In this document: positions 5,061-31,837 of the stretch, piece after piece
Layout: every line of letters starts with the position of its first letter
Position numbering within the stretch: position 1 is the first letter of the stretch
DNA from: Nostoc sp. PCC 7120 = FACHB-418
Lineage (GTDB): Bacteria; Cyanobacteriota; Cyanobacteriia; Cyanobacteriales; Nostocaceae
DNA: 32,000 nucleotides
NCBI RefSeq assembly: GCF_000009705.1
Contig: NC_003272.1
Location: 2,190,001 to 2,222,000, forward strand
Direction of reading: 5' to 3'
Program-made: the position numbers and the translations under genes
The notes under the pieces: model-generated
Database searches by the model: none
What the model was told of the DNA's origin: nothing
The model's input: only the letters and a program-made list of their open reading frames with translations

Positions 5061-5108
5061 GGGTGATTAGTCATTAATCAACAGTTAAAAATGAAGGTTT
5101 TTAATCAT

Positions 5109-5136
5109 GGACTATTGACTATTGACTATTGACTAT
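5109..5136. repeat. Heptamer array GACTATT x4 (STRR-like)
   Basis: gactatt gactatt gactatt gactatt. The array overlaps the nagZ stop codon (5126-5128). Confidence 0.9.
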
Positions 5137-6223
5137 TCTCAAAACAACAGGCGATCGCTAATTCGGCATGACGGACTAAAGTATCTTTATCTAACGCCTG
5201 TACAGAATATTCTGGAGTTACTGCCAATAGTCTTTCGATTCTCTCCTTAGCGGACTCTACCACTGACTCAGCCAAGCTACCATCAGTTAAACAATCAGTA
5301 AAATCTTCCGCAATTTTATATGTACGCTCGATAGAAGACGCGTGGATATTACGAGAAACAATAAATAAATCACAGCCAGCATTAAAAGCCCGCGCGACTG
5401 TACCACTTTGCATAAACATATCTGAAACTGCTTTCATGTCTAAGTCGTCAGATACGACCACACCCTGAAAACCAAGTTCTTTCCGCAATATAGTTTTGAG
5501 GATGGGGCGGGATAGGGTAGCTGGTAAATCTGGGTCGATTTTGGGAAATAAAATATGGGCGGTCATAATGAGGGGAATCCCTTCTTCAATCAAAGCTTTG
5601 AAGGGAATAAGTTCTCGATTTTGTAATTCCTCTGGAGTCAGGTTGAGAATTGGTAATTCCACATGGGAGTCCTTACTCGTATCACCATGTCCGGGGAAAT
5701 GTTTGGCGCATCCCACAATTCCAGCTTCTGTCAGTCCCAAATAATATTCCCGCGCACCAGCCGCCGCCGTATCAGGGGTATTACCAAAAGCGCGAGAACC
5801 GATAATAGGATTTTGCGGGTGGGAATAAATATCAGCTACAGGCGACCAAGATAAGTTGATGCCCAAAGATTTTAATTCAATTGCCGTGGCTTTTGCTACT
5901 TCACGAGCCTGCGATCGCAACAACAACGCCTGAGGAAATCTCGTAATCGGTAAAGGTGTCCTTACAACGCGTCCTCCCTCATGGTCTAAGGTAAAAAACA
6001 TGGAATCGCGTTCTGCATATTCTTGTATCTGGCTATGTAACTCCTGAAAAGTTTCCAGCCAAACCGCGTAAGGTACACCATCTAAAAAGTTTTTAGCAAA
6101 GAATATTACCCCTATTGGTTTCAATTCACCCAAAGCGCGTTTATCTTCATCACTCAAACTAGTACCAGAAATACCCATTATTAAGTGATTTCCAAAGCGT
6201 TCTAGTCTCTGCAATGCTGGCAT
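5126..6223 (-). CDS. nagZ: beta-N-acetylhexosaminidase, glycoside hydrolase family 3
   Basis: 365 aa. LDHEGGRV, NLSWSPVADI, GSRAFG and CAKHFPGHGDTSKDSH are GH3/NagZ signatures. Confidence 0.85.
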   Translation of the reverse strand: MPALQRLERFGNHLIMGISGTSLSDEDKRALGELKPIGVIFFAKNFLDGVPYAVWLETFQELHSQIQEYAERDSMFFTLDHEGGRVVRTPLPITRFPQALLLRSQAREVAKATAIELKSLGINLSWSPVADIYSHPQNPIIGSRAFGNTPDTAAAGAREYYLGLTEAGIVGCAKHFPGHGDTSKDSHVELPILNLTPEELQNRELIPFKALIEEGIPLIMTAHILFPKIDPDLPATLSRPILKTILRKELGFQGVVVSDDLDMKAVSDMFMQSGTVARAFNAGCDLFIVSRNIHASSIERTYKIAEDFTDCLTDGSLAESVVESAKERIERLLAVTPEYSVQALDKDTLVRHAELAIACCFENSQ

Positions 6224-6518: not shown

Positions 6519-8874
<2,356 letters not shown>

Positions 8875-8879
8875 AAATT

Positions 8880-8900
8880 AGTCAATAGTCAATAGTTACC
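8880..8900. repeat. Heptamer array AGTCAAT (about 3 copies, last degenerate)
   Basis: agtcaat agtcaat agttacc, starting 6 nt after the crtB stop. Confidence 0.7.
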
Positions 8901-8904
8901 AGTG

Positions 8905-9050
8905 AAATAGTGCGTTCCTGAGCCACCCCCGTGGGCGGGTTTCCCGACTTGAGGGAGTGGCGTGTCGCCTTGCGTCAGAAAACAACTATCGTTTCCCGTT
9001 CGCGGTAGCGTCTTCGCAGGAGCAGGGGTTATCCTAAAGTACCTTAAGGG
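8905..9050. repeat. GC-rich intergenic hairpin element (dispersed-repeat/MITE-like); related in inverse orientation to 11925-11985
   Basis: It contains GCCAC...GTGGC closing a GC-rich hairpin (gagccacccccgtgggcgggtttcccgacttgagggagtggcg). Its composition contrasts with the flanks. The 66-aa ORF 8889-9089 lies wholly inside it and is probably not coding. Confidence 0.5.
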
Positions 9051-20933: not shown

Positions 20934-21769
20934 TAGTTTAGCCTCCGGTAGAGTTTCTCACCCTTGGCTATTTCTTCATAATACTGCTCGTAAGGAGTGA
21001 ATCTAATAGATTCTTGCTTTCCTAAACCCAAGATGCCAAAACTGCATAAACTATTGTGAAAAAGTGTGTGTACTCGTTTTTGCAGTATCTGATTGAAGTA
21101 GATTAAAACGTTCCGGCAGAATATGACATTAAACTCATTAAAAGAACTATCCGTGGCTAGATTATGCTGGGCAAAAATAATATTTTCTCGTAATGATGCC
21201 CGAAATATCGCATGGTCATAAGCCGCCGTGTAGTATTCGGAGAAAGACTGCTTACCACCTGCTTTTAAGTAAAGCTGAGTATATTCCTGCATCATTTTGA
21301 GCGGAAAAATCCCACTTTTGGCATTTTGTAATACTTTCTCATTAGTGTCGGTGGCATAAATCCGGCAACGGTGGTAAAGATTTTCTTCCTGTAGGAGGAT
21401 TGCCATTGAGTAAACTTCCTCTCCACTGGAACAGCCAGCGTGCCAAATACGGATAAATGGATAAGTGCGGAGGATGGGTACAACTTGATTTCTGAAAGCC
21501 AGATAGAAACTGGGGTCACGAAACATAGATGTGACATTTACCGTCAAACTCAGCAAAAATCTTTCTAGACAAGTGCGATCGTGCAGTAGTTGTTCTTGTA
21601 ATGCTGAAATATTATCTACACCCTCCAAGCGCATAAAGCTGTAAATGCGGCGTTTGAGCGAAGACACAGCATAGTTGCGGAAGTCATGACCGTAGTATTG
21701 GTAAACACCTTCTAACAGCAACTTGATTTCTATATCTTCTAAGCTGGGTTTGGGCAAAATCATAAACAA
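20933..21769 (-). CDS. cheR: CheR-type protein-glutamate O-methyltransferase
   Basis: 278 aa. TSMFRDP, IWHAGCSSGEEVYSMAI, ATDTN and IFCRNVLIYF are CheR SAM-MTase motifs. It overlaps cheB by 1 nt. Confidence 0.9.
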   Translation of the reverse strand: MFMILPKPSLEDIEIKLLLEGVYQYYGHDFRNYAVSSLKRRIYSFMRLEGVDNISALQEQLLHDRTCLERFLLSLTVNVTSMFRDPSFYLAFRNQVVPILRTYPFIRIWHAGCSSGEEVYSMAILLQEENLYHRCRIYATDTNEKVLQNAKSGIFPLKMMQEYTQLYLKAGGKQSFSEYYTAAYDHAIFRASLRENIIFAQHNLATDSSFNEFNVIFCRNVLIYFNQILQKRVHTLFHNSLCSFGILGLGKQESIRFTPYEQYYEEIAKGEKLYRRLN

Positions 21770-21792
21770 TTCAACATTAAAAATAAGAAAAC

Positions 21793-21811
21793 ACTCACAG
21801 AGTGAGTTTTT
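21793..21811 (-). terminator. Possible terminator hairpin downstream of the 21917-22735 gene
   Basis: ACTCAC-aga-GTGAGT, a 6-bp stem flanked by T/A runs on both strands. The loop is very short, so this is a weak call. Confidence 0.35.
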
Positions 21812-21916
21812 CAGCTATTGAGTTGGAGAAAATTTGACAGTTCATCGGCTGATGAAAACTTCAAGATATGAATTTGAGCCAACCAAATAATTATTGACTA
21901 GGAACTCAGCACTTTA

Positions 21917-22735
21917 TTACTTGCGTTTTTTATTTTTCTTTTGCTTCTTCGGCTTCTTACTCACAAGTGGTGCAAAACCACGGGGTTGTCCAAGTTCCTG
22001 CTTGTAGTAATTGATTAATTCTTCCAGCGCAAACCTTTTTTCGGGAACTTCTTCACGGGTTTTCAACCCCAATTCCACCTGTACATCATCCCAATCACCG
22101 ACAATGAAAGGTGGTACTCGATTAGCCACAAACGCTTGTTCTATCACTGGTGCAGACTCGACAGCTTGTAAATCAAGCAATTCACCAATCAAAAAAGCGT
22201 TAAATTCTGGGTCATTATTGGCAAAGTCTTCTAACCTTTGCGTCAACACTGCTACACATCGGTCACGTAAATCAGGATGTTTCTCAGCAATTTTAGTTAA
22301 GGCTGTAGCCGCATCGGCGAGTTGGTAAGCATCATGAGAAGAATCCCCCAGATATGCTTCTAGTGTAGGAATCGCCGCAGCCCCAACTGTAGCAAAGTAC
22401 TCAGCTAATTCGCCTGGTGTCCAATCGTCATCGACTTCGTGAAATAGATTTACCAGGGGTTGAATTGCTGCTTCTGCACTTAATTGAGTCAATACCCGTA
22501 TCGCATGGACTGGACTCCAGACTTCTACACTATCTTGGTCAGCATTATTTAATTCCGCATCGGTCGCCATGCGAATTAAGTCAGGAACATGGTCTGCATT
22601 AAAACCAAATTTCTGCACATAGTTGGGGATATCTCGCATCTTACTACAATCACCGTAGGTCAATAGCTTATCTACTGGAGATGGATAAATAGACGCTGCC
22701 ATATTAGTTATCTCTGCCTTTTTGGTTGTAACCAT
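21917..22735 (-). CDS. Hypothetical helical-repeat protein with Lys-rich C-terminal tail (possibly DUF1186-like)
   Basis: 272 aa, predicted all-alpha and acidic, ending in KKPKKQKKNKKRK. The family assignment comes only from recollection of similar cyanobacterial proteins. Confidence 0.6.
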   Translation of the reverse strand: MVTTKKAEITNMAASIYPSPVDKLLTYGDCSKMRDIPNYVQKFGFNADHVPDLIRMATDAELNNADQDSVEVWSPVHAIRVLTQLSAEAAIQPLVNLFHEVDDDWTPGELAEYFATVGAAAIPTLEAYLGDSSHDAYQLADAATALTKIAEKHPDLRDRCVAVLTQRLEDFANNDPEFNAFLIGELLDLQAVESAPVIEQAFVANRVPPFIVGDWDDVQVELGLKTREEVPEKRFALEELINYYKQELGQPRGFAPLVSKKPKKQKKNKKRK

Positions 22736-22894
22736 TATCCCTATGATTTGCCATCACTTGGAACAGAACTATTTGAACTACTTATATTTAGCATTGCCAA
22801 ACACTTATAAACTGATACAACGCTAAAGATGTAAAATTTTTGTTAAATTCATCGAGCATCAATAGTTTCCCATCATCCTTATCAGGTACTCAGC

Positions 22895-25108
22895 ATGACT
22901 GCAATCACACCCAAGGCTTCGTCAGCGCTTCCCGAATTTTCAGAAGGTATTCAATATTTTGGTGAGGCGCTACCAGATTTTGAAACTTATGGTGCCACAC
23001 CTGCGATAGAATCGGGAAAAGTAGCGATCGCAGATCCGAAAGACCCAAAAGCTGTGTATCAAACCTTACTAGCTGCTGATGCCCTCCGCTACTTAACACT
23101 ACAAGTCACTGCAAGTAAGGCATCTGGGCATCCCGGCGGCTTTGCTAGCCAAGCAGAAGCCTATGCAGCCTTGGTCATGCTGGGGTATAAAAACATTATT
23201 ACCGAAGTCGGACATCACGCACCAGGGTTTTATAGTGCCATGTTCCTCGATCGCTCCTTAGAGGATATGGGCATATCTACAGTACAACAATTGCGCGATC
23301 GCTTCCGCGAAAAGCATGGACTCTTAGGACACCTCTCCGGTTACATCCCCGGTATTCTCGCCCCCGCCGGCCCTCTAGGACAAGGACAGCACTTTGCAAT
23401 GGCGGCTGCACTCCTCCACCGTGACAAACTTTTCCCCTTCACCCTCGGCGACGGTGGACTAGGTGAACCCTACATCATGAGTTCAATGGCGCACTTTAAC
23501 ACCGCCTATCCCAGCGTCACCAACTTCTTACCGGTGTTAGTGTGGAACGGTTACAGCCAAGAACATCACAGCATGGTTTCCCTGAAAACCAACGCACAGA
23601 TGACAGCATTCTGGCAAGGTAATGGATTTGAGGAAGTCATCTTAGTTGATGCCAAAGAATTTGACGACCAAAACCAACCAGGGGATTATGTTGATAGTAC
23701 CGCCTTTTCCCTTGAGCAACGCCTAGCCTTTACCAAAGCGATACTCGTAGCTGTAGATAAAGCTGCCCGTTCCGCCCTGGGTGGGAAGTTAACAGTCTTT
23801 ATTATCAAACAACTCAAAGGTGCAGGCGTTCACGCCAGAGGTGCAAAATCACACAACCTCTACCCCAAAGACACCCTAGACGCACCCCACATTGTGAGTG
23901 CATTAAAAACCCGTGCATTACCCCTAGAAGCTTGGCAAATCGTCAGAACCAACGCCGAACGCGCAGGTGGCGGCCCCGCAGCTAAGACAGTGGTGACAGA
24001 ATTTGAGTTACCATTGCCAGATTTAGGCGCGTTACCTTTAGAAGAATACGCAGTAGGCGGCGAACCCAAAGTTTCAACCACCGCAATGGGACGAATTGTG
24101 GGTGCAGTCGGACAAAAAGATGCGAAATTCCTAGTCACCAACGCCGACGGAAACGAAGCATCAGGTATTGGTAACATCAACCAAGCCTTAAAGATTATCC
24201 ACCCCACCACCGACGAATTATATAACCAAGCACCAAACGGGCAAGTTTACGAACCCCTGAGTGAAGATGCTTGTGCAGGTTTAGCCGTTGGTTTATCCTT
24301 GATGGGTGCAAGAACCCTCTGGTGTTCTTATGAATCTTTCGCCATCAACGGTTTACCAATTTGGCAAACCGTCATCCAAGCAATGGCAGAATTACGCCGC
24401 CAAACACCTTCAACAATTACCTTATTCACCGCCGGCGCATTAGAACAAGGACGCAACGGTTGGACACACCAACGTCCTGAAATCGAAGCTTATTTTGCTT
24501 CCATGATGCGGAACGGCAATGTTTTTCCAGTATTCCCCCCCGATGCTAACAGTACCCAAGTTTGTTATGACTGGGCGTTGACAACTAAGAATAAAGGAAT
24601 TGTCATCACCACCAGTAAATCACCCTTACCAATTCGCACCAGTTTTGCACAAACTCGCCAAGGTTTAGAAGATGGCGCAGTAGTGTTACATGAAATTGCT
24701 GGTGGTAAGACAGTTGTGTTTGCTGTCATTGGTGATATGACATTAATTCCAGTATTTGAAGCCGCAGCTTTCTTAGAAACTGAAGGTATCGGAGTGAAGA
24801 TAGTTTCTATCATCAACCCCCGCCGTTTGTATCGTTCTCATGATGTAGCTTGGGATACCTGTTCTGAAGCTGATAACGGTTTCATTGATGATGCTAAATT
24901 CGCCGAATTATTTGCTGGCGATGCCTTAATTGGTGTCACTGGTGGCGCGGCGGCGATGTTAGAACCAATCATGTTGCGGAGTAACAGCAAGCGCGATACC
25001 TTCGCCTGGAAGCGTGGGGAAACTACAGCTAGTGCTGGTGAGTTGATGGCGTTTAATGGTTTGACTGCTGAGGCGTTGACTAAGCGGGCTATTGAATTGG
25101 TGCATTAA
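22895..25108 (+). CDS. Thiamine-diphosphate-dependent enzyme of the transketolase/phosphoketolase superfamily
   Basis: 737 aa. The motifs are transketolase-like SGHPGGFAS and a TPP-binding GDGGLGEP...N segment. The N-terminus does not look like a canonical Xfp phosphoketolase. Confidence 0.6.
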   Translation: MTAITPKASSALPEFSEGIQYFGEALPDFETYGATPAIESGKVAIADPKDPKAVYQTLLAADALRYLTLQVTASKASGHPGGFASQAEAYAALVMLGYKNIITEVGHHAPGFYSAMFLDRSLEDMGISTVQQLRDRFREKHGLLGHLSGYIPGILAPAGPLGQGQHFAMAAALLHRDKLFPFTLGDGGLGEPYIMSSMAHFNTAYPSVTNFLPVLVWNGYSQEHHSMVSLKTNAQMTAFWQGNGFEEVILVDAKEFDDQNQPGDYVDSTAFSLEQRLAFTKAILVAVDKAARSALGGKLTVFIIKQLKGAGVHARGAKSHNLYPKDTLDAPHIVSALKTRALPLEAWQIVRTNAERAGGGPAAKTVVTEFELPLPDLGALPLEEYAVGGEPKVSTTAMGRIVGAVGQKDAKFLVTNADGNEASGIGNINQALKIIHPTTDELYNQAPNGQVYEPLSEDACAGLAVGLSLMGARTLWCSYESFAINGLPIWQTVIQAMAELRRQTPSTITLFTAGALEQGRNGWTHQRPEIEAYFASMMRNGNVFPVFPPDANSTQVCYDWALTTKNKGIVITTSKSPLPIRTSFAQTRQGLEDGAVVLHEIAGGKTVVFAVIGDMTLIPVFEAAAFLETEGIGVKIVSIINPRRLYRSHDVAWDTCSEADNGFIDDAKFAELFAGDALIGVTGGAAAMLEPIMLRSNSKRDTFAWKRGETTASAGELMAFNGLTAEALTKRAIELVH

Positions 25109-25133
25109 TTTTCTATTTAATTGAGATATTATA

Positions 25134-25167
25134 TCCCTGCCAATTTTACAAGATGGTAGGGATTTTT
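25134..25167 (+). terminator. Rho-independent terminator after the TPP enzyme gene; also the left edge of the accessory region
   Basis: TCCCTGCCA-attttacaaga-TGGTAGGGA (9-bp stem with one G-U pair) followed by TTTTT. Confidence 0.7.
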
Positions 25168-25299
25168 CATATTGTAAATACTGAATTAAATACTCAGCTT
25201 TTCTTTAATTTGTTCATGATAATTCAATATTTTCCTATTTTTTTATCTAAAGTGCTACAGTAATTTTCATACTTAAGCTAACGTAATAACTCTTAGACC

Positions 25300-26013
25300 G
25301 TGATGCCTTCCAACTTCGAGCTAAGACTCAAACACTTAGAAGACAACATTAGACAAGACCAAGATTTGCTCAAAAAGTATCAAGATTCTTTGCGATATGA
25401 AGATGATCCACGCCGCCAGGCTAAGTACGAGCGGGAAATTCAGCAATTGCGTGAATCGGCTAATTGTTATCAGAAGGAATACGATGAACTGCAAATGCAA
25501 ATAACTGGTGAGTCAACTGTACAGATGCAGAACGTAGCTACCCAGTTGCAGCAGATGAACACCAAAATAGATAGATTGTATGCTGGTCAGAAGGCTATCT
25601 ATGAAAACATTAATCACTTACGTCAAGGACTACTAGCTCGTTATGATGCGGGTGAACAGAGGATAATTGCGGCACTTACTGAACAGTTAGATCAATCTCA
25701 GATGATTATGATTGCTACGGTTTTAGATGCAATAGAAACTAATCAAGTAACAGATGGAGAAATGCAATTAATCTTACAAGGAATACAGCAAAATATCAAT
25801 AAATTACAACAAAGTGGTACTGCTTTACCTCCTAGTCAATCAGCATTAGTGGAAGTGATCAATGCCCCTGAATTAGATTTCAAGCACAGATTGAAAGTTG
25901 GTATACCTATTGTCCCTTTTATTTTGGACTATGAAGGTGAATTAGAGCTAGGGACAGGAATAGACTTAGAAGCTGCTTGGAAAACTTTGATTATGCGATT
26001 GAAAGGAAAGTAA
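25300..26013 (+). CDS. Coiled-coil protein A of the ABC-3C/Lamassu-like operon; N-terminal helical hairpin shared with protein B, C-terminal hydrophobic/Gly motif
   Basis: 237 aa (GTG 25300 or ATG 25303). Heptad-rich throughout, with no catalytic motif seen. The C-terminus reads KHRLKVGIPIVPFILDYEGELELGTGIDLEAAWKTL. There is a 3-nt gap to the next gene. Confidence 0.75.
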   Translation: MMPSNFELRLKHLEDNIRQDQDLLKKYQDSLRYEDDPRRQAKYEREIQQLRESANCYQKEYDELQMQITGESTVQMQNVATQLQQMNTKIDRLYAGQKAIYENINHLRQGLLARYDAGEQRIIAALTEQLDQSQMIMIATVLDAIETNQVTDGEMQLILQGIQQNINKLQQSGTALPPSQSALVEVINAPELDFKHRLKVGIPIVPFILDYEGELELGTGIDLEAAWKTLIMRLKGK

Positions 26014-26016
26014 ATT

Positions 26017-26646
26017 GTGGAGATGGAGCAAGAACGTGAACAAGATTTAAAGAAACACATTGAAGAGGATAGAAAATTACAAAAAAAATTAGAAGATCAA
26101 TATCGATATACAGAGAATGAAAAAGAGAAGATTAAATTAGAAAAGGATATCAAAGAAATTCGACAAAGAATTTCTGGTTGGGAAGAAGAAATAAGCACAA
26201 TTAGTATGCAACGAAGAGAATCTATAGCTCGTGAAATGCCCTCTATTACATTTGATGAGCTAGATGTTGTGACTAAATTTATTCTTGGTATGCAACCTGC
26301 TTCTCCTGAAATTAACTTTAGCCTCACAGACATAACACAAAAAATATCAAAAAATCATCTCACCCAAGAGGTTCATTCTCTAATAACAATGGGAATGGGT
26401 AAAGTCAAAGATGTTGGTCGTTTTATTGAACATAATGCTGTTCTACGTCCTGAATTTCCAGACAAATTGACAGCAGGATTTCTTACGGAGTATCAAAAAT
26501 TATTACAAAAAGGAATTACAGGAGACGCTTTATTTGAGTCTTTACGTCAATTTTCCTGTGGTAATAGTTCAGATTTTAGGAAAGCCGCAGCTGGCTTGGC
26601 AGTTCTATCATATCTCTTCGAGAAATGTGAGGTGTTTGAGCGATGA
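26017..26646 (+). CDS. Protein B: N-terminal helical hairpin plus a C-terminal helical domain resembling ABC-three-component-system C-terminal (CTD) domains
   Basis: 209 aa (GTG 26017 or ATG 26023). Its stop overlaps the ATG of the next small gene (ATGA at 26643-26646). The C-terminal end AAAGLAVLSYLFEKCEVFER resembles endings I recall from ABC-3C effector-component CTDs. This is unverified. Confidence 0.7.
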   Translation: MEMEQEREQDLKKHIEEDRKLQKKLEDQYRYTENEKEKIKLEKDIKEIRQRISGWEEEISTISMQRRESIAREMPSITFDELDVVTKFILGMQPASPEINFSLTDITQKISKNHLTQEVHSLITMGMGKVKDVGRFIEHNAVLRPEFPDKLTAGFLTEYQKLLQKGITGDALFESLRQFSCGNSSDFRKAAAGLAVLSYLFEKCEVFER

Positions 26647-26787
26647 CCAATTCTATAGAATATTCTTCTACTTATAACTCCTCATTGATTTTACCAACAA
26701 AACATATTTCTACTATAGGAATCCTATTTGATTTGTGAACAAGACCAAGAGATAATACGGAGAGGGATAAAAGTCTAATAGTAAACA

Positions 26788-27357
26788 ATGAAAAGTCAGC
26801 ATTTACAAGCTACTACACTTGCGGGGGAAGTATCGCAGCAATATTTAAAAGAGGAAACTGCACTGAATGCGATTGCTGAATTACAAGATTTTATAGATAT
26901 GTGTCCAGATGCGCGTGAAGTAAGGAAAGCATTGGCAGTCAAGCTAGTTTATCAAGGTTACTTGTATGATGAAATCCAAAAAATTTTAGACGTATCGCGA
27001 GGGTCAATCACAGGCTGGAAGCAAGCCTATGAAGAAACTGGAATTGACGGACTGCGACTAAACTACAAAGGGAGAAAGAGCTATCTGAATGCTAAACAAC
27101 TCCAAGAGGTGTTGAGCTGGCTACAAACAAAAGATTGTTGGGAGCTTGGGGAACTAGAGTATCAACTAGCTTTTGAGTATGACGTAGTTTATGAGTCAAA
27201 GCAAAGCTACTACGACTTGTTCTCCGAAGCAGGAATCAGTTGGAAGAAAACCACAAAGGTAAATCCGAAAGCCGATGAGAATGCTGTTGCAGAAAAAAAA
27301 AAGAGATTGAAACATTGCTGGCAAATAACCGAGAAGAAATCGAAACAGGAAAGTTAA
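26788..27357 (+). CDS. IS630 transposase, N-terminal (HTH DNA-binding) frame
   Basis: 189 aa with helix-turn-helix-like segments (YDEIQKILDVSRGSITGWKQAY). An A10 run at 27293-27302 lies inside the overlap with the downstream frame. Confidence 0.85.
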   Translation: MKSQHLQATTLAGEVSQQYLKEETALNAIAELQDFIDMCPDAREVRKALAVKLVYQGYLYDEIQKILDVSRGSITGWKQAYEETGIDGLRLNYKGRKSYLNAKQLQEVLSWLQTKDCWELGELEYQLAFEYDVVYESKQSYYDLFSEAGISWKKTTKVNPKADENAVAEKKKRLKHCWQITEKKSKQES

Positions 27358-27899
27358 GAGTATTGTTAATTGATGAGTGTCATTTAATGTGGGGAGATTT
27401 AAGTGGTTATGTATGGGGAAAAAGTGACCAAGAAATCGCAGTCCCAGTTGTCAACGAGCGAGATAAGCAGACATACTATGGGGCAGTTGACTATCTCCTT
27501 GGAGAATTAGTTCTCAAAGCTTATGATGCTGGAAACTCAAAAAATACTATCAACTACCTAGAATACTTACTAGCTAACTCTCCCGACCAGCGATTACTAA
27601 TTTTTTGGGATGGGGCTAGCTACCACCGTTCCAAGGAAATTAGAGGTTTCTTGGACTCTGTTAATCAAAGCTTACCAACCGAGCAATGGAAAATACACTG
27701 TGTCCGTTTTGCCCCTAATTGCCCAGTACAAAATCCGATAGAGGATATTTGGTTACAAGCCAAAACATGGGTTAGACGTTTTTGTGCTTTAATTCCTTCA
27801 TTTTCACATTTAAAGTGGATATTTGAGTGGTTTATTAGACACACTACCTTTGATTTTGACACTCTACAGATGTACGGAACTTATTCAAAAATCAAATAG
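27315..27899 (+). CDS. IS630 transposase, catalytic DDE frame (-1 relative to the upstream frame; frame open from 27279)
   Basis: The motifs are LLIDECH, IFWDGASYHRS and NPIEDIW (DDE/D triad). A -1 shift on the A10 run would read ...AEKKKEIETLLANNREEIETGKLRVLLIDECH, a continuous transposase of about 370 aa. Confidence 0.85.
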   Translation: MLANNREEIETGKLRVLLIDECHLMWGDLSGYVWGKSDQEIAVPVVNERDKQTYYGAVDYLLGELVLKAYDAGNSKNTINYLEYLLANSPDQRLLIFWDGASYHRSKEIRGFLDSVNQSLPTEQWKIHCVRFAPNCPVQNPIEDIWLQAKTWVRRFCALIPSFSHLKWIFEWFIRHTTFDFDTLQMYGTYSKIK

Positions 27900-28102
27900 G
27901 ATTCCTATAGTTACTCTTTGTTAGGAGTAGGTGCTAAAATATTAGAACAATTGTACCAACCAAGAACAGTTTCATCTCTTTGGAGTGCTGTTTCTACCAT
28001 GCCAGAGGTTGCTACATTTGAACGTTTTGTACTAACGCTTGATCTTCTATACACTATAGGAGCAATTGAGATGGAGATGGGATTACTTCGGAGGTGTCAT
28101 CA

Positions 28103-29854
28103 ATGATTCATGCTGTTCGTTGTAATCAGCCATCATTTAAAACAGTTGAGTTCAGACCTGGTTTAAATATAGTTTTAGCAGATCGTACAGAAGATTCTGG
28201 ACAAAGAGATTCCCGTAATGGATTGGGTAAATCTACTCTCATTGAAATTATTCACTTTTGTCTTGGAGGAACAATTCAGAAAGCTAAAGGACTTGGTTCT
28301 AGAAATCTTCGTGGTTGGGCTTTTAGTTTAGAGCTTACACTTGCAAATCAAATTATCACCGTCACAAGAAATACTGAAGATAAGACTGAGGTAGTAATAG
28401 ATGGAAATACTACTAACTGGCCTATTCAACCCAAAGAACAAGAAGGTCACAAGGTTCTCAGTTTGGATGACTGGAAGGCTGTTTTAGGAAATTTAACATT
28501 TGGATTAAGCATTGATTATGATAAGAAATACAAGCCTACTTTTAGAGGACTTATTTCTTACTTTATCCGTCGTGGAAGAGACGCATTTTCTACACCATTT
28601 GAGCATCACAAAAATCAACTGAGTTGGGAAAAACAAATTAATAATTCTTTTCTCCTTGGTCTGGCTTGGGAAGACGCAAGAGAATTGCAACTTTTAAATG
28701 ATAAACAAAAACTGATAACAGATATTAAAAAACTTAAAAAAGATACAGAATCTGGCGTTGCGATTGGAATTTTAGGTTCGTTAGGTGAGCTTGAAGCGTT
28801 AAAAGTTCAGGTCGAAGCTCAACTACGTGAAAGAAAAGAAACATTGAACAATTTTCGTGTAGCAGAGCAATATCATGAATTAGAAGAAAGAGTTAATTTT
28901 TTAACATCGCAAATTCATGAGGCAACAAATAAAAATATTACTGACCAGAAATTACTAGAGTTTTATCAATCTAGTCTTAAATCAGAAGATGAACCAAGAC
29001 CAGATGATATCGTTAGTATATATGAGAATGCTGGCATTGAATTGCCAGGATTAGTAGTTAGAAGGCTAGAAGAAGTAGAAATATTTCATCGCCGATTAAT
29101 AGAAAATCGTAGAGAGTTTTTAGGAAGTGAAATCAAACGTCTTAGGCGGGATCTAGTTTCTAGAGAAAATTTTATTCGAGAAAAAAGCAATGAGCGTGCG
29201 GAATTATTAGAAGTTTTAAAGACGCACGGTGCTTTGGAAGAGTATACAATGCTACAAGAAATTTATCTTGATAATGTAGCTAACCTAAACGAAATTAATA
29301 AACGTATCGAAGAATTAAAACAATTTGAAGAAGAAAGAAGTAGCCTAAAAATTGAAAAAGAACTCTTGCTTCAACGTGCTAGACGCGACTATGGAGAACG
29401 AAATGAGCAAGCTGAACGTGCTATTGATTTATTCAGAATAAACTCTCGATTTCTCTATGATACTCCTGGAAGACTTATCATTGATGTAGGTAAAAATGGT
29501 TTTACTTTTGGAGTAGAAATTGGGCGAGATGGTAGTGAAGGTATCGATAAAATGAAGATATTTTGCTATGATTTAATGCTGGCACAGCTTTGGTCAGAAC
29601 GAGATCCTTCACCCCGAATACTAATTCATGATAGTACAATTTTTGATGGTGTAGATGAAAGACAAATATCTCTTGCTTTACAGTTAGTAGATAGAGAGGC
29701 TAGAAGCCGTGGCTTTCAATATATCTGCACATTAAATTCAGACATGATTCCACAGTCAGAGTTTTCTGCACTTGACTTTAATTTTCATTCCTTTGTCAGA
29801 CTTAGACTTACAGATGAGAATGAAGAAGGAAGATTATTAGGTATTAGCTTTTAG
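28103..29854 (+). CDS. SMC/Rad50-like ABC ATPase with long coiled-coil insert (ABC-three-component / Lamassu LmuB-like; DUF2326-like)
   Basis: 583 aa from ATG 28103 (the ORF track starts at GTG 28094). Walker A is SRNGLGKST. There are about 250 aa of heptad repeats (residues about 190-440), then GSEGIDK, Walker B RILIHDS and D-loop FDGVDE. The ATG overlaps the stop of the small gene (ATGA). Confidence 0.8.
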   Translation: MIHAVRCNQPSFKTVEFRPGLNIVLADRTEDSGQRDSRNGLGKSTLIEIIHFCLGGTIQKAKGLGSRNLRGWAFSLELTLANQIITVTRNTEDKTEVVIDGNTTNWPIQPKEQEGHKVLSLDDWKAVLGNLTFGLSIDYDKKYKPTFRGLISYFIRRGRDAFSTPFEHHKNQLSWEKQINNSFLLGLAWEDARELQLLNDKQKLITDIKKLKKDTESGVAIGILGSLGELEALKVQVEAQLRERKETLNNFRVAEQYHELEERVNFLTSQIHEATNKNITDQKLLEFYQSSLKSEDEPRPDDIVSIYENAGIELPGLVVRRLEEVEIFHRRLIENRREFLGSEIKRLRRDLVSRENFIREKSNERAELLEVLKTHGALEEYTMLQEIYLDNVANLNEINKRIEELKQFEEERSSLKIEKELLLQRARRDYGERNEQAERAIDLFRINSRFLYDTPGRLIIDVGKNGFTFGVEIGRDGSEGIDKMKIFCYDLMLAQLWSERDPSPRILIHDSTIFDGVDERQISLALQLVDREARSRGFQYICTLNSDMIPQSEFSALDFNFHSFVRLRLTDENEEGRLLGISF

Positions 29855-29902
29855 TTAAATGTTAGTTAGGTTAAGGCGCAAGCTTGCATATTTGCAGCAC
29901 AA

Positions 29903-29953
29903 CGAATTAATACTTACGCCGTAACCCAACACTAACCCCTGATAAATAGTAAT
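29903..29953 (+). repeat. Copy 1 of a direct repeat preceding a toxin cassette
   Basis: CGAATTAATacTTaCgccGTAACCCAACAC...CCTGA..GATAAATAGTAAT. The first 30 nt match 30790-30819 at 24 of 30 positions. Confidence 0.7.
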
Positions 29954-29991
29954 GAAGGTAAAAATATTAAAATTTAGCAACAAGGGCGATT

Positions 29992-30360
29992 TTGAATAAA
30001 GAGGATATAATCTACCAACAAGTTATAGCAATTGCTAGTAGTTACGGAATTTTTGATTGCATTCCCTGTGCTAGAGCAATCAAAGAATTTTTGATCAGAC
30101 AAAGTATTCATGGCAAGCATATTAAAATAGATACAAATTCTCAAGATTCAATTTATGGCAGGATTTATGATGATAGCATTGGTGAATTGATTGCTACTAC
30201 AGGTCATCATGAAGGTGTTATAATTGAGGTAAATGGCTTAGAAATTGTTTTTGATAACATCCACCATCAAGGAATAACGCGATTAGACTGGATACAAAAT
30301 CTCTATTCACCTATTCTAGATGCAGGATTAGAGTTTCAAATCACAGAAAGTTACTTTTAA
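29992..30360 (+). CDS. Stand-alone papain-fold-like toxin domain protein (Tox-PL-like), TTG start
   Basis: 122 aa with no Met other than the TTG-encoded start. The Cys is at a helix N-terminus (GIFDCIPCARAIKEFL), followed by GHHEGVIIEV and VFDNIHHQG. That is the Cys...His...Asp/Asn order of papain-like peptidase/deamidase toxins. The assignment is by eye and unverified. Confidence 0.5.
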   Translation: MNKEDIIYQQVIAIASSYGIFDCIPCARAIKEFLIRQSIHGKHIKIDTNSQDSIYGRIYDDSIGELIATTGHHEGVIIEVNGLEIVFDNIHHQGITRLDWIQNLYSPILDAGLEFQITESYF

Positions 30361-30383
30361 CCTAGAGAATTAGTGAGTCAAGT

Positions 30384-30725
30384 ATGAATAATTTATACAA
30401 CTTACTGCAAAAGATCAAAAAAAGACCTGCGATGTACTTAGGTAGAAATTCTATTTTTAGCCTGCAAGCATTTTTAGACGGCTACTACTTTGCACGTCGA
30501 GAAATTGGTATTAACTTAACAGAAGAAGAAGTAGAATTTCAAAACTTTTTACAATGGATAAGACACAGATTTAATGTAGAAACAGGTCAGTTATGGTCAA
30601 GTATTATTCTTTTCCATTCAGCAGATGAAAAAAGTGCAGTGGATAGATTTTTTACTTTGTTTGAAGAATTTAATCAACAGCATAAAAATCAGGAAATAGA
30701 AAAAATTGATCAGGTGGTTACGTAA
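30384..30725 (+). CDS. Putative cognate immunity protein
   Basis: 113 aa, 23 nt downstream of the toxin-like gene. The N-terminal KKRPAMYLGRNSIFSLQAFLDGYYFA pattern recurs in polymorphic-toxin immunity proteins, by my recollection. Confidence 0.45.
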   Translation: MNNLYNLLQKIKKRPAMYLGRNSIFSLQAFLDGYYFARREIGINLTEEEVEFQNFLQWIRHRFNVETGQLWSSIILFHSADEKSAVDRFFTLFEEFNQQHKNQEIEKIDQVVT

Positions 30726-30789
30726 CAATTCAGATACCCTAATTCTAAGATTGATGATTTTGATGATCGAAAAATCTTAAAAAGAAGTC

Positions 30790-30852
30790 CGAATTAATGT
30801 TTGCATTGTAACCCAACACCAAAATACCTGAATTTCCCCCAGATAATGTAAT
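30790..30852 (+). repeat. Copy 2 of the direct repeat preceding a toxin cassette
   Basis: CGAATTAATgtTTgCattGTAACCCAACAC...CCTGA...GATAATGTAAT, about 40 nt upstream of the vapB-like start. Confidence 0.7.
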
Positions 30853-30889
30853 CAGAAAATTTATTTGTTAGGATTTAAAGTTATTCATA

Positions 30890-31120
30890 ATGCTGCAAAT
30901 CATCAAAGCAACCTGCACCAACGGCGAACTTATTTTAAGTGAAAAACTCAGTTCCGAATTAGAAGGTAAAACCCTGCAAGTTATGATTATTGAACCCAGC
31001 GAACCTAATCAAGATCATCAAGCCTCAAAAATACAGCAATTTCTAGCACGAGTTAATAACTACTCTTTCCAAATACCCGTAGATTACAAATTTAATCGAG
31101 ACGAAATTTATGAAAGATAA
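30890..31120 (+). CDS. VapB-type antitoxin (small beta-rich N-terminus, cyanobacterial type)
   Basis: 76 aa. IIKATCTNGELILSEKL...LQVMIIE is typical of antitoxins paired with PIN toxins. It overlaps the PIN gene by 11 nt. Confidence 0.6.
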   Translation: MLQIIKATCTNGELILSEKLSSELEGKTLQVMIIEPSEPNQDHQASKIQQFLARVNNYSFQIPVDYKFNRDEIYER

Positions 31121-31430
31121 AATTTTTCTCGATACTAACCTCTGGATTTATCTCTATGCTAAAAATCCGCTCGAAAAATCCCAACAAGTTGCAGAAATCA
31201 TTAAAAATAATTATTCATTTCTGCTAGTTAGCACTCAGGTCTTAGGTGAATTATTTCATTTTTTAACCAGAAAAAAATCACATCTAAAACTGATGCAACC
31301 ACGATTATATCAGATATAGTTAATACCTTTCCAATTCAGGCAATTAACACAACAGAGGTTATACAAGCATTAGAAATTCACGCTAAATATAACTACTCTT
31401 ATTGGGATAGTTTGATTATACAGCACTTTG
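31110..31430 (+). pseudogene. vapC: PIN-domain (VapC) toxin gene, frameshifted in an A7 run (31271-31277) and 3'-truncated by an IS
   Basis: Frame 1 reads MKDKIFLDTNLWIYLY...VSTQVLGELFHFLTRKK. Continuing in the -1 frame gives ITSKTDATTIISDIVNTFPIQAINTTEVIQALEIHAKYNYSYWDSLII. The sequence then breaks off at TA 31429-31430, where the IS begins. Confidence 0.7.
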
Positions 31431-31477
31431 TCTAACGGTTTGGTACAGTAGTTGAGAAGATAAAAGTAAAAAATCAG

Positions 31478-31837
31478 ATGAAACCCTACTCAGTAGACCT
31501 GCGCTCAAAAATTATTAGCGTTTACGAAGCGGGAAATACATCTATTCGCAAAGTAGCAGAAAGATTCAAGGTAAGTAAAAATACAGTACAAAACCTCGTG
31601 AAGCGAAAACGAGAAAAAGGGACGCTAGAGCCAAGTGTAGCGACAGGAGGAAAACCAAGCCAAGTATCTGGTTATGAACAACAGATAGAGCAAATGGTAG
31701 CAGAACATCTAGACTATACCCTAGCCGAATACTGTGAGTATTGGGAAGAAAAGACAGGGGTAAGGTTAAGTGAGAGTGCAATGTGCAGATTTCTTCAGAA
31801 ACAGAAGCTCACCCTCAAAAAAAACAGTACGAAGTAG
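31478..31837 (+). CDS. IS630-family transposase, N-terminal HTH frame
   Basis: 119 aa. YSVDLRSKIISVYEAGNTSIRKVAERFKVSKNTVQNLVKR is a typical IS630 HTH. The frame ends just after an A8 run (31817-31824). Confidence 0.85.
   Translation: MKPYSVDLRSKIISVYEAGNTSIRKVAERFKVSKNTVQNLVKRKREKGTLEPSVATGGKPSQVSGYEQQIEQMVAEHLDYTLAEYCEYWEEKTGVRLSESAMCRFLQKQKLTLKKNSTK

Follow-up and report, generated by a model that had tools for sequence, protein, structure and literature searches.

ABC-3C systems belong to the same superfamily as Lamassu and DdmABC, in which LmuA is the effector, LmuC the middle component and LmuB the ATPase; all Lamassu components are essential wherever this has been tested (PMC10586767). 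LmuC stabilises the sequestered state of the effector, whose C-terminal domain (CTD) is held against the LmuB dimer, and it also binds DNA; a triple mutant of LmuC in DNA binding loses defence (bioRxiv 2025.03.14.643221). A 'diverged' sub-family combines CTD6-12 with middle components (MC) 2-8 and an LmuB of approximately 600 amino acids (aa) (bioRxiv 2025.03.14.643221). Here we analyse a stretch of 32,000 nucleotides (nt) of the chromosome of Nostoc sp. PCC 7120 (NC_003272.1, positions 2,190,001 to 2,222,000 of the forward strand). This whole stretch is called the window, and all positions given below are counted from its first letter. Judged by its sequence, it holds a four-gene relative of these systems, consisting of alr1851 (gene A), alr1852 (gene B), an MC6 gene and a DUF2326 ATPase gene, and the MC6 gene is split by an insertion sequence (IS) of the IS630 family. 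Nostoc (Anabaena) sp. PCC 7120 is the standard model of the filamentous cyanobacteria; it is genetically tractable and is the host of well-studied cyanophages. We found no paper describing either the disruption or the operon in this strain.

Results

In all likelihood the MC6 gene of this four-gene Lamassu/ABC-3C-type operon was hit in codon 25 by an IS630-family element, which inserted at the TA of the sequence ACTAGT, duplicated this TA and is now fixed in the strain lineage. The gene lies in two pieces on the forward strand, as do the other genes of the operon. The 5' fragment (26643..26715; 24 codons plus 1 nt) contains the peptide ILPTKHIS and starts with an ATG at 26643 that overlaps the stop codon TGA of gene B (26644-26646) as ATGA (26643-26646). 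As it stands it reads into the IS and would give a 31-aa product, MTNS...HISTIGILFDL-stop. The 3' fragment (27910..28106) holds codons 25-89 of the restored gene, including the whole predicted winged-helix core, and its stop codon overlaps the ATG of the ATPase gene (ATGA, 28103-28106). Both overlaps, by which the original prediction (a reading of the letters alone) had coupled the interrupted open reading frame (ORF) to its neighbours, were verified on the sequence.

Between the fragments lies the IS (26716..27907), flanked by the left (26714..26715) and right (27908..27909) copies of the duplicated target TA. The insertion point is the TA within the palindrome ACTAGT; IS630 itself prefers a CTAG core, and the target here also has one. 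Excising 26716-27909, that is the IS plus one TA, gives an ORF of 270 nt and 89 codons. Choosing the other TA breaks the frame with a stop codon (...HISTI-stop), and the frame is also broken when both TAs are taken out; the frame thus discriminates between the choices of TA in the way the prediction had claimed. The empty site, TCTACTAGTTACTC, is seen in the DNA of two orthologous loci, one from Scytonema tolypothrichoides (L005) and one from a metagenome-assembled genome (L001), which read ...CATATTTCTAC-TA-GTTACTC... and are identical to the predicted empty site, with a single TA where PCC 7120 has two. Uninterrupted relatives would have spoken against the prediction if they had shown another junction or no continuous ORF across the site; what they show is the identical junction. 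We regard it as established where the element begins and ends, that its target was duplicated, how the sequence read before the insertion, and to which families the parts belong.

The restored 89-aa product matches Pfam PF20293 (ABC-3C middle component 6) from end to end, with 65.7 bits against a cut-off of 27.2 (E 3.7e-18), which is the family that an HMM search had been expected to return. Residues 17-86 align with positions 1-75 of the 76-position profile, without a gap and in a single register across the junction. On its own the 3' fragment reaches 49.4 bits and covers positions 13-75, so the 5' fragment supplies the first twelve profile positions, in register. A search of 5.8 billion proteins yields many uninterrupted 89-aa orthologues at 84-88% identity, and in these the junction of the restored protein, ILPTKHISTSYSLLGVGAKILE (...KHISTSYSLLG...), is identical. 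Restoration to this extent is far beyond chance. In a comparison of 50 family members, residues I16, L17, P18, K20, H21 and S27 do not vary.

In the predicted structure of the restored protein, residues 1-18 are disordered and residues 28-89 form a winged helix, with helices at 28-37 (the first of the fold), 45-52 and 61-73 and a beta hairpin at 77-86. The best fold matches of the model are generic winged-helix domains (E>=0.03), and no Lamassu LmuC chain is found among the top 50; a sequence search of the PDB with the MC6 profile gave no match either. Compared with the orthologues, both fragments have ratios of nonsynonymous to synonymous substitution (dN/dS) of 0.17-0.28, so no decay is visible in them. 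As a separate observation, MC6 orthologues occur in two forms of 89 and 75 aa, which differ in a 42-nt block directly 3' of the ATGA overlap (window 26643-26684); the extra 14 residues of the longer form are variable and predicted to be disordered.

The element itself is 1192 bp long, points in the direction of the operon and shows the usual make-up of the IS630 family: a DDE_3 transposase with N-terminal helix-turn-helix (HTH) domains, a length of about 1.2 kb, short imperfect terminal inverted repeats (TIRs), and insertion at TA with duplication of it. We found no feature in which it departs from the family. The left TIR (26716..26743, TAGGAATCCTATTTGATTTGTGAACAAG) and the reverse complement of the right TIR (27880..27907, TAGGAATCCTATTTGATTTTTGAATAAG) agree at 26 of 28 positions. 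A repeat search extended the pair to 32 nt with 94% complementarity; the palindromic nature of the target ACTAGT adds two bases to each arm. Two ORFs on the forward strand encode the transposase. The first, orfA (26788..27357), carries the HTH and winged-helix DNA-binding domains (HTH_33, E 1.2e-14, and HTH_23), and orfB (27315..27899) the DDE catalytic domain (DDE_3, E 4.9e-15). On the NCBIfam model transpos_IS630, orfA covers positions 2-134 and orfB positions 139-298 of 299, and the 114.9 bits of orfB alone exceed the curated cut-off of 100, which bears out the family assignment of the original prediction.

A slippery heptamer A_AAA_AAG in the frame of orfA (27297..27303, forward strand), inside a run of ten A, provides a -1 frameshift site, and a -1 shift there fuses orfA and orfB into a predicted transposase of 370 aa. 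A product of exactly this size is called from 1112 nt at the position of the IS on the CP183817.1 record, a call that presumably reflects annotated -1 slippage. Among 14 related full-length copies from metagenomes and plasmids none has a single-frame gene, so the two-ORF state is the native design rather than decay, and the -1 fusion is clean in four of the five related copies that have the run of ten A. Related copies also confirm the ends: on Nostoc commune plasmids (81-85% identity) homology begins and ends exactly at TA|TAGGA...TCCTA|TA, and in metagenome contigs the terminal 24-mer is followed by TA in 121 of 124 occurrences, with 107 distinct flanks. By gene order after alr1851 and alr1852, the two ORFs would be alr1853 and alr1854, both of which are listed as IS630-family genes of PCC 7120, and IS630-family transcripts of the strain were up 5.6-fold six hours after nitrogen step-down (PMC3141674).

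The window represents the PCC 7120 chromosome, with genes A and B 100% identical to alr1851 and alr1852, respectively, and the complete chromosome CP183817.1 is 100% identical to window positions 21523-31146 (9.6 kb). To establish how widespread the filled site is within the lineage, we compared 12 contigs, chosen as representatives that encode alr1852 exactly and drawn from independent NCBI, ENA and Logan assemblies, including one complete chromosome. The site is filled in all 12 and the IS is entered at the identical base. Two JGI contigs show the right junction, both of them beginning inside the right end of the IS. Many contigs break at the IS, which indicates that it is a repeat in the PCC 7120 genome. 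No empty-site variant occurs among the contigs examined; the insertion is fixed in the sequenced PCC 7120 lineage.

The comparison with empty sites that had been proposed was successful in part. Empty sites were found in the orthologous loci L001 and L005 mentioned above. Closer to PCC 7120 they were not: all contigs that match alr1852 exactly carry the filled site, a contig scan of genomes, which did not bring up the source genome itself, gave no locus above 86% identity, and the protein database contained no intact MC above 88-91% identity to the restored protein. The age of the insertion is a similar case. It had been called recent because the TIRs are nearly perfect and both gene fragments undecayed. 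The fragments are indeed free of visible decay, as the dN/dS values above show. The TIRs provide no clock for the PCC 7120 copy, since ends of the same quality are found on the related copies of 81-85% identity. The insertion is not a recent laboratory event visible as polymorphism, given the filled site in all 12 lineage contigs.

The other three genes of the operon align with their orthologues over the full length and are intact, as had been predicted. Gene A (alr1851; 25300..26013) encodes an all-alpha protein. It matches no Pfam family, its AlphaFold model is all-helical (mean confidence, pLDDT, of 82.6), and the comparison of this model with PDB folds yielded nothing with E<0.8 and no recognisable enzymatic fold. 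We presume that it is a separate effector or partner. Gene B (alr1852; 26017..26646) is LmuA-like, with an N-terminal coiled coil of about 65 aa and a C-terminal docking domain of CTD10 type. It matches the PADLOC model PDC-M68A with E 1.3e-40 and scores 17.3 bits on Pfam CTD10, under the cut-off of 28.1. Residues ~72-209 align with relatives of about 250 aa that combine HNH_2 and CTD10 and carry precomputed PF20275 hits; this alignment has 20 invariant columns, including the C-terminal motif AAGLA..F.EKCEVFE. Where these relatives have HNH_2, B has the coiled coil, and no enzymatic effector domain is present on B.

BLASTP aligns the N-terminal coiled coils of A and B over about 60 aa (A residues 9-68, B residues 7-66; E 2e-5). 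We also considered whether A and B could be a single gene split by a stop codon. They share a frame here and at most loci, but not at L011, and they are separate in all relatives, so that this option was rejected. In addition, in six loci (L001-L004, L006 and L011) whose flanking A, MC and ATPase genes are 78-89% identical, the orthologues of gene B reach no more than 41-46% identity to it, against 73% in Scytonema; the adaptor B seems to exist in two divergent allelic classes within a conserved operon.

The ATPase gene (28103..29854) encodes an intact, LmuB-like coiled-coil ABC ATPase of 583 aa and DUF2326 type, which aligns over its full length with orthologues at 83-86% identity and is preceded by GGAGG 8 nt upstream of its ATG. 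It matches PADLOC PDC-M68B (E 6e-201), LmuB over residues 13-424 (E 5.5e-10) and Pfam DUF2326 (E 1.8e-41); on AAA_23 it scores 25.2 bits, just below the cut-off, and its P-loop reads NGLGKST. The Walker B motif reads IHDS rather than DE. No CxxC zinc hook occurs in the sequence and a PDB sequence search gave no match. NCBIfam has no matching model for A, B, MC or the ATPase. A further observation concerns the coiled-coil middle of the ATPase (residues 290-386; window 28970-29260): with 34.1 bits it exceeds the Pfam cut-off for CTD10, a domain that one would expect on the effector. A BLASTP comparison of the ATPase with B detected no likeness between the two, and the match may be compositional.

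With CTD10, MC6 and an ATPase of about 580 aa, the operon falls in the 'diverged' Lamassu sub-family. The likeness to Lamassu/ABC-3C systems extends to the gene order (CTD protein, small MC and coiled-coil ABC ATPase, with overlapping stop and start codons), the MC6 domain, the CTD10-type C-terminal domain and the match of the ATPase to the PADLOC LmuB models. The Walker B sequence IHDS also fits a review's remark that LmuB is putatively hydrolysis-defective. On the other hand, B lacks an enzymatic domain and has a coiled coil in common with a separate upstream protein, the operon has four genes, the ATPase is without the CxxC zinc hook, and there is no sequence match to any solved Lamassu chain. 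In intact relatives the MC lies between the CTD protein and the ATPase, as in PCC 7120. Distant relatives form a three-gene unit of HNH-CTD10, a 75-aa MC6 and a 580-aa DUF2326 protein, again with overlapping stops, beside an MmeI-like restriction gene. In the cyanobacterial clade, a coiled coil of ~65 aa has taken the place of the HNH domain. Compared with the PADLOC candidate system PDC-M68, both model proteins are strongly matched by B and the ATPase and are co-located in the window, with the IS between their two genes. However, B matches only positions 107-251 of the 253 in the PDC-M68A profile and differs in its N-terminal domain, and the PDC-M68 model has neither an MC nor a gene A component.

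In Rhizonema sp. PD37 (L007:3174-4791) the gene in the A position encodes a caspase-like Peptidase_C14 protein, of which the last 55 aa share 35% identity with the N-terminus of the B protein of the same locus (E 1e-8). In the window, the match to B lies at the N-terminus of A, not at the C-terminus as in the Rhizonema protease. From these alignments we infer that the cyanobacterial variant has a split effector, the effector being alr1851 here and a caspase-like protease in Rhizonema. B would then act as an adaptor (coiled coil plus CTD10) that docks to the MC and the ATPase, and the upstream protein would be an exchangeable effector tethered to B via the matching coiled coil. Such an arrangement recalls the effector-associated adaptor domains (EADs) of nucleoside triphosphate-dependent conflict systems, reportedly described by Kaur et al. 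in 2020, in having a short module common to a core protein and a separately encoded effector, with swappable effectors (all-alpha or caspase-like). It differs in that a simple coiled coil serves as the common module here and that a Pfam search gave no match to an EAD family at E<=0.1.

Several other features of the window were noted. In 29992-30725, directly 3' of the ATPase gene, lies a gene for a Tox-PL-2 papain-fold toxin (E 2.7e-30), followed by a 113-aa ORF that matches no family and is probably the immunity partner of this toxin. Further downstream, in 31110-31480, a PIN-domain toxin gene with a 76-aa putative antitoxin upstream of it (30890-31120) is frameshifted at an A-run near 31270 and truncated at approximately 31427, at ...GATTA-TA|CAGCACTTTG, by a second, different IS630-family element. 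This second element lies 3.5 kb downstream, its transposase starts at 31478 and the element runs off the window; by gene numbering it is probably alr1858/59. The region looks like a small island of conflict genes.

Elsewhere in the window, a 272-aa gene upstream of a phosphoketolase (equivalent to 21917-22735) is split by the gene calls into pieces of 110 and 104 aa in one set of PCC 7120-like assemblies (L139; Logan SRR35767320, 7 samples), which may be a sub-strain mutation. Tandem heptamer repeats occur at 1240-1313, 2253-2313, 5102-5158 and 8856-8906, namely CCCCAAT/CCCCAGT as well as ACTATTG in inverted pairs beside GCGATCGC. They recall two features typical of heterocystous cyanobacteria, short tandemly repeated repetitive sequences and HIP1 palindromes.

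Discussion

The proposed course of events is that the IS transposed into the ACTAGT TA of the MC6 gene, the equivalent of LmuC, duplicating the TA. It would thereby part the peptide with I16, L17, P18, K20 and H21 from the winged-helix core, so that no complete middle component could be made. This separation, together with the requirement for the middle component in the Lamassu systems studied, makes loss of function likely, and on this analysis the system is most likely non-functional in PCC 7120, with A, B and the ATPase intact. Somewhat more tentatively, and falling a little short of an even chance in our judgement, the operon may be an undescribed four-gene Lamassu variant with a split, exchangeable effector, of which PCC 7120 carries a natural, cleanly repairable MC knock-out.

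The split could in principle be an artefact of assembly or annotation, with the IS misplaced in one assembly. Breaks of short-read contigs at the IS show its repeat status only, and nothing was found in favour of an artefact. The left junction is the same in 12 contigs from independent assemblies, and the right junction recurs in the two JGI contigs; this explanation has next to no probability and is effectively refuted. A real insertion may nevertheless leave the system working, or working differently, if the winged-helix core, as 62 aa from the TTG at 27918 or as something shorter, and the ATPase are still expressed through read-through or from a hybrid promoter at the right end of the IS. 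We regard this as improbable, even though several points on its side weigh against inactivation by the IS. The IS has the orientation of the operon and a scan of 25000-30400 found no terminator-like site; none of the predicted winged-helix fold is missing from the 3' fragment, which also retains its score on MC6; and in Mojavia pulchra (L009:1-130) an ATG-started MC begins at the equivalent of about codon 26, directly after an unrelated ORF and without the N-terminal peptide, so that this peptide might be dispensable. Furthermore, the ATPase has its own GGAGG, and a weak candidate outward promoter (TTCAAA, 16-nt spacer, TATAGT; 27884..27911, forward strand; 9 of 12 consensus matches) is a hybrid, with its -35 box in the IS end and its -10 box across the junction of IS, TA and target. 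Against these stand the five residues I16, L17, P18, K20 and H21, which are invariant in the 50 family members and lost from the 3' fragment, and the Mojavia locus is cut by a contig end 308 nt away and may be degenerate. The number of promoter-like sites in the region is not raised over that in shuffled sequence (19 against 17.5 in the control). The TTG at 27918, 11 nt past the end of the IS, from which 27918-28106 would encode 62 aa, has no Shine-Dalgarno sequence before it, and a transcript from the candidate promoter would begin at about this codon.

The suggestion that both the 3' fragment and the ATPase could be expressed from the IS therefore fares differently for the two: expression of the 3' fragment is doubtful for lack of a Shine-Dalgarno sequence, whereas the ATPase could be expressed by read-through given that no terminator was found, and may well be made in this way. 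Two further considerations count against the interpretation that we favour, in which the IS inactivates a Lamassu-like defence operon. The pre-insertion state is drawn from orthologous sequences at approximately 85% identity and not from a close strain. We found no experimental report on defence by MC6/CTD10/DUF2326 systems or by PDC-M68, which is a 'candidate' in PADLOC. As to its name, the element is probably IS895 or a close relative, an identification to which the shared host strain and the A_AAA_AAG motif point: IS895 from PCC 7120 is known to be mobile (PMC5101192), and the same -1 frameshift motif has been reported for it (PMC2246112).

A different question is whether the loss was selected. 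The original prediction saw in the disarmed system a pattern expected if it is costly or autoimmune, the alternative being a neutral hit that drifted to fixation. Selected loss strikes us as rather unlikely, although related loci offer some encouragement. Independent internal deletions of the operon occur in three of 13 related genomic loci (L010, L012 and L013): in Nostoc sp. NMS2 from about codon 97 of A to the end of MC, in Anabaena sp. CCY 9613 from about codon 63 of A to about codon 325 of the ATPase, and in a Rivularia metagenome-assembled genome from B to about codon 390 of the ATPase. At L009 (Mojavia) the 5' end of MC is replaced, at nearly the position of the break in PCC 7120. One metagenome copy of the PCC 7120 allele (L015; JGI 3300014786), with the same IS junction and otherwise identical to the window, has an extra frameshifting deletion of 23 bp (equivalent to 29341-29364) that splits the ATPase into pieces of 418 and 95 aa; this could be further decay of a silenced operon or an assembly error. 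Lamassu is also toxic on over-expression, and interface mutants are hyperactive (bioRxiv 2025.03.14.643221). Yet frequent loss is typical of defence genes generally and is no proof of a cost here, and IS630 elements insert at any suitable TA. The second IS630-family element in the window hit the PIN toxin gene, which suggests high IS activity in the island, and high local IS activity combined with drift is an equally good reading.

Conclusions

Disruption of a defence gene by an IS is commonplace, and the event in PCC 7120 is an ordinary one whose parts are individually annotated in a long-sequenced genome. Annotation pipelines, however, call the 51- or 62-aa 'MC6' fragment as a gene and not as a disrupted gene, and as a result defence-system finders will mis-score the locus. 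The only Lamassu-type operon of PCC 7120 is probably silent, which bears on how phage sensitivity and conjugation efficiency are read in this strain. Because we know precisely how the site read before the insertion, removing 26716-27909 cleanly in one step would give an isogenic pair for the MC6/CTD10/DUF2326 sub-family. The locus also exposes what may be a split-effector variant of the Lamassu family; if this holds true, a silent defence system would be brought back to work in PCC 7120 by one precise deletion.

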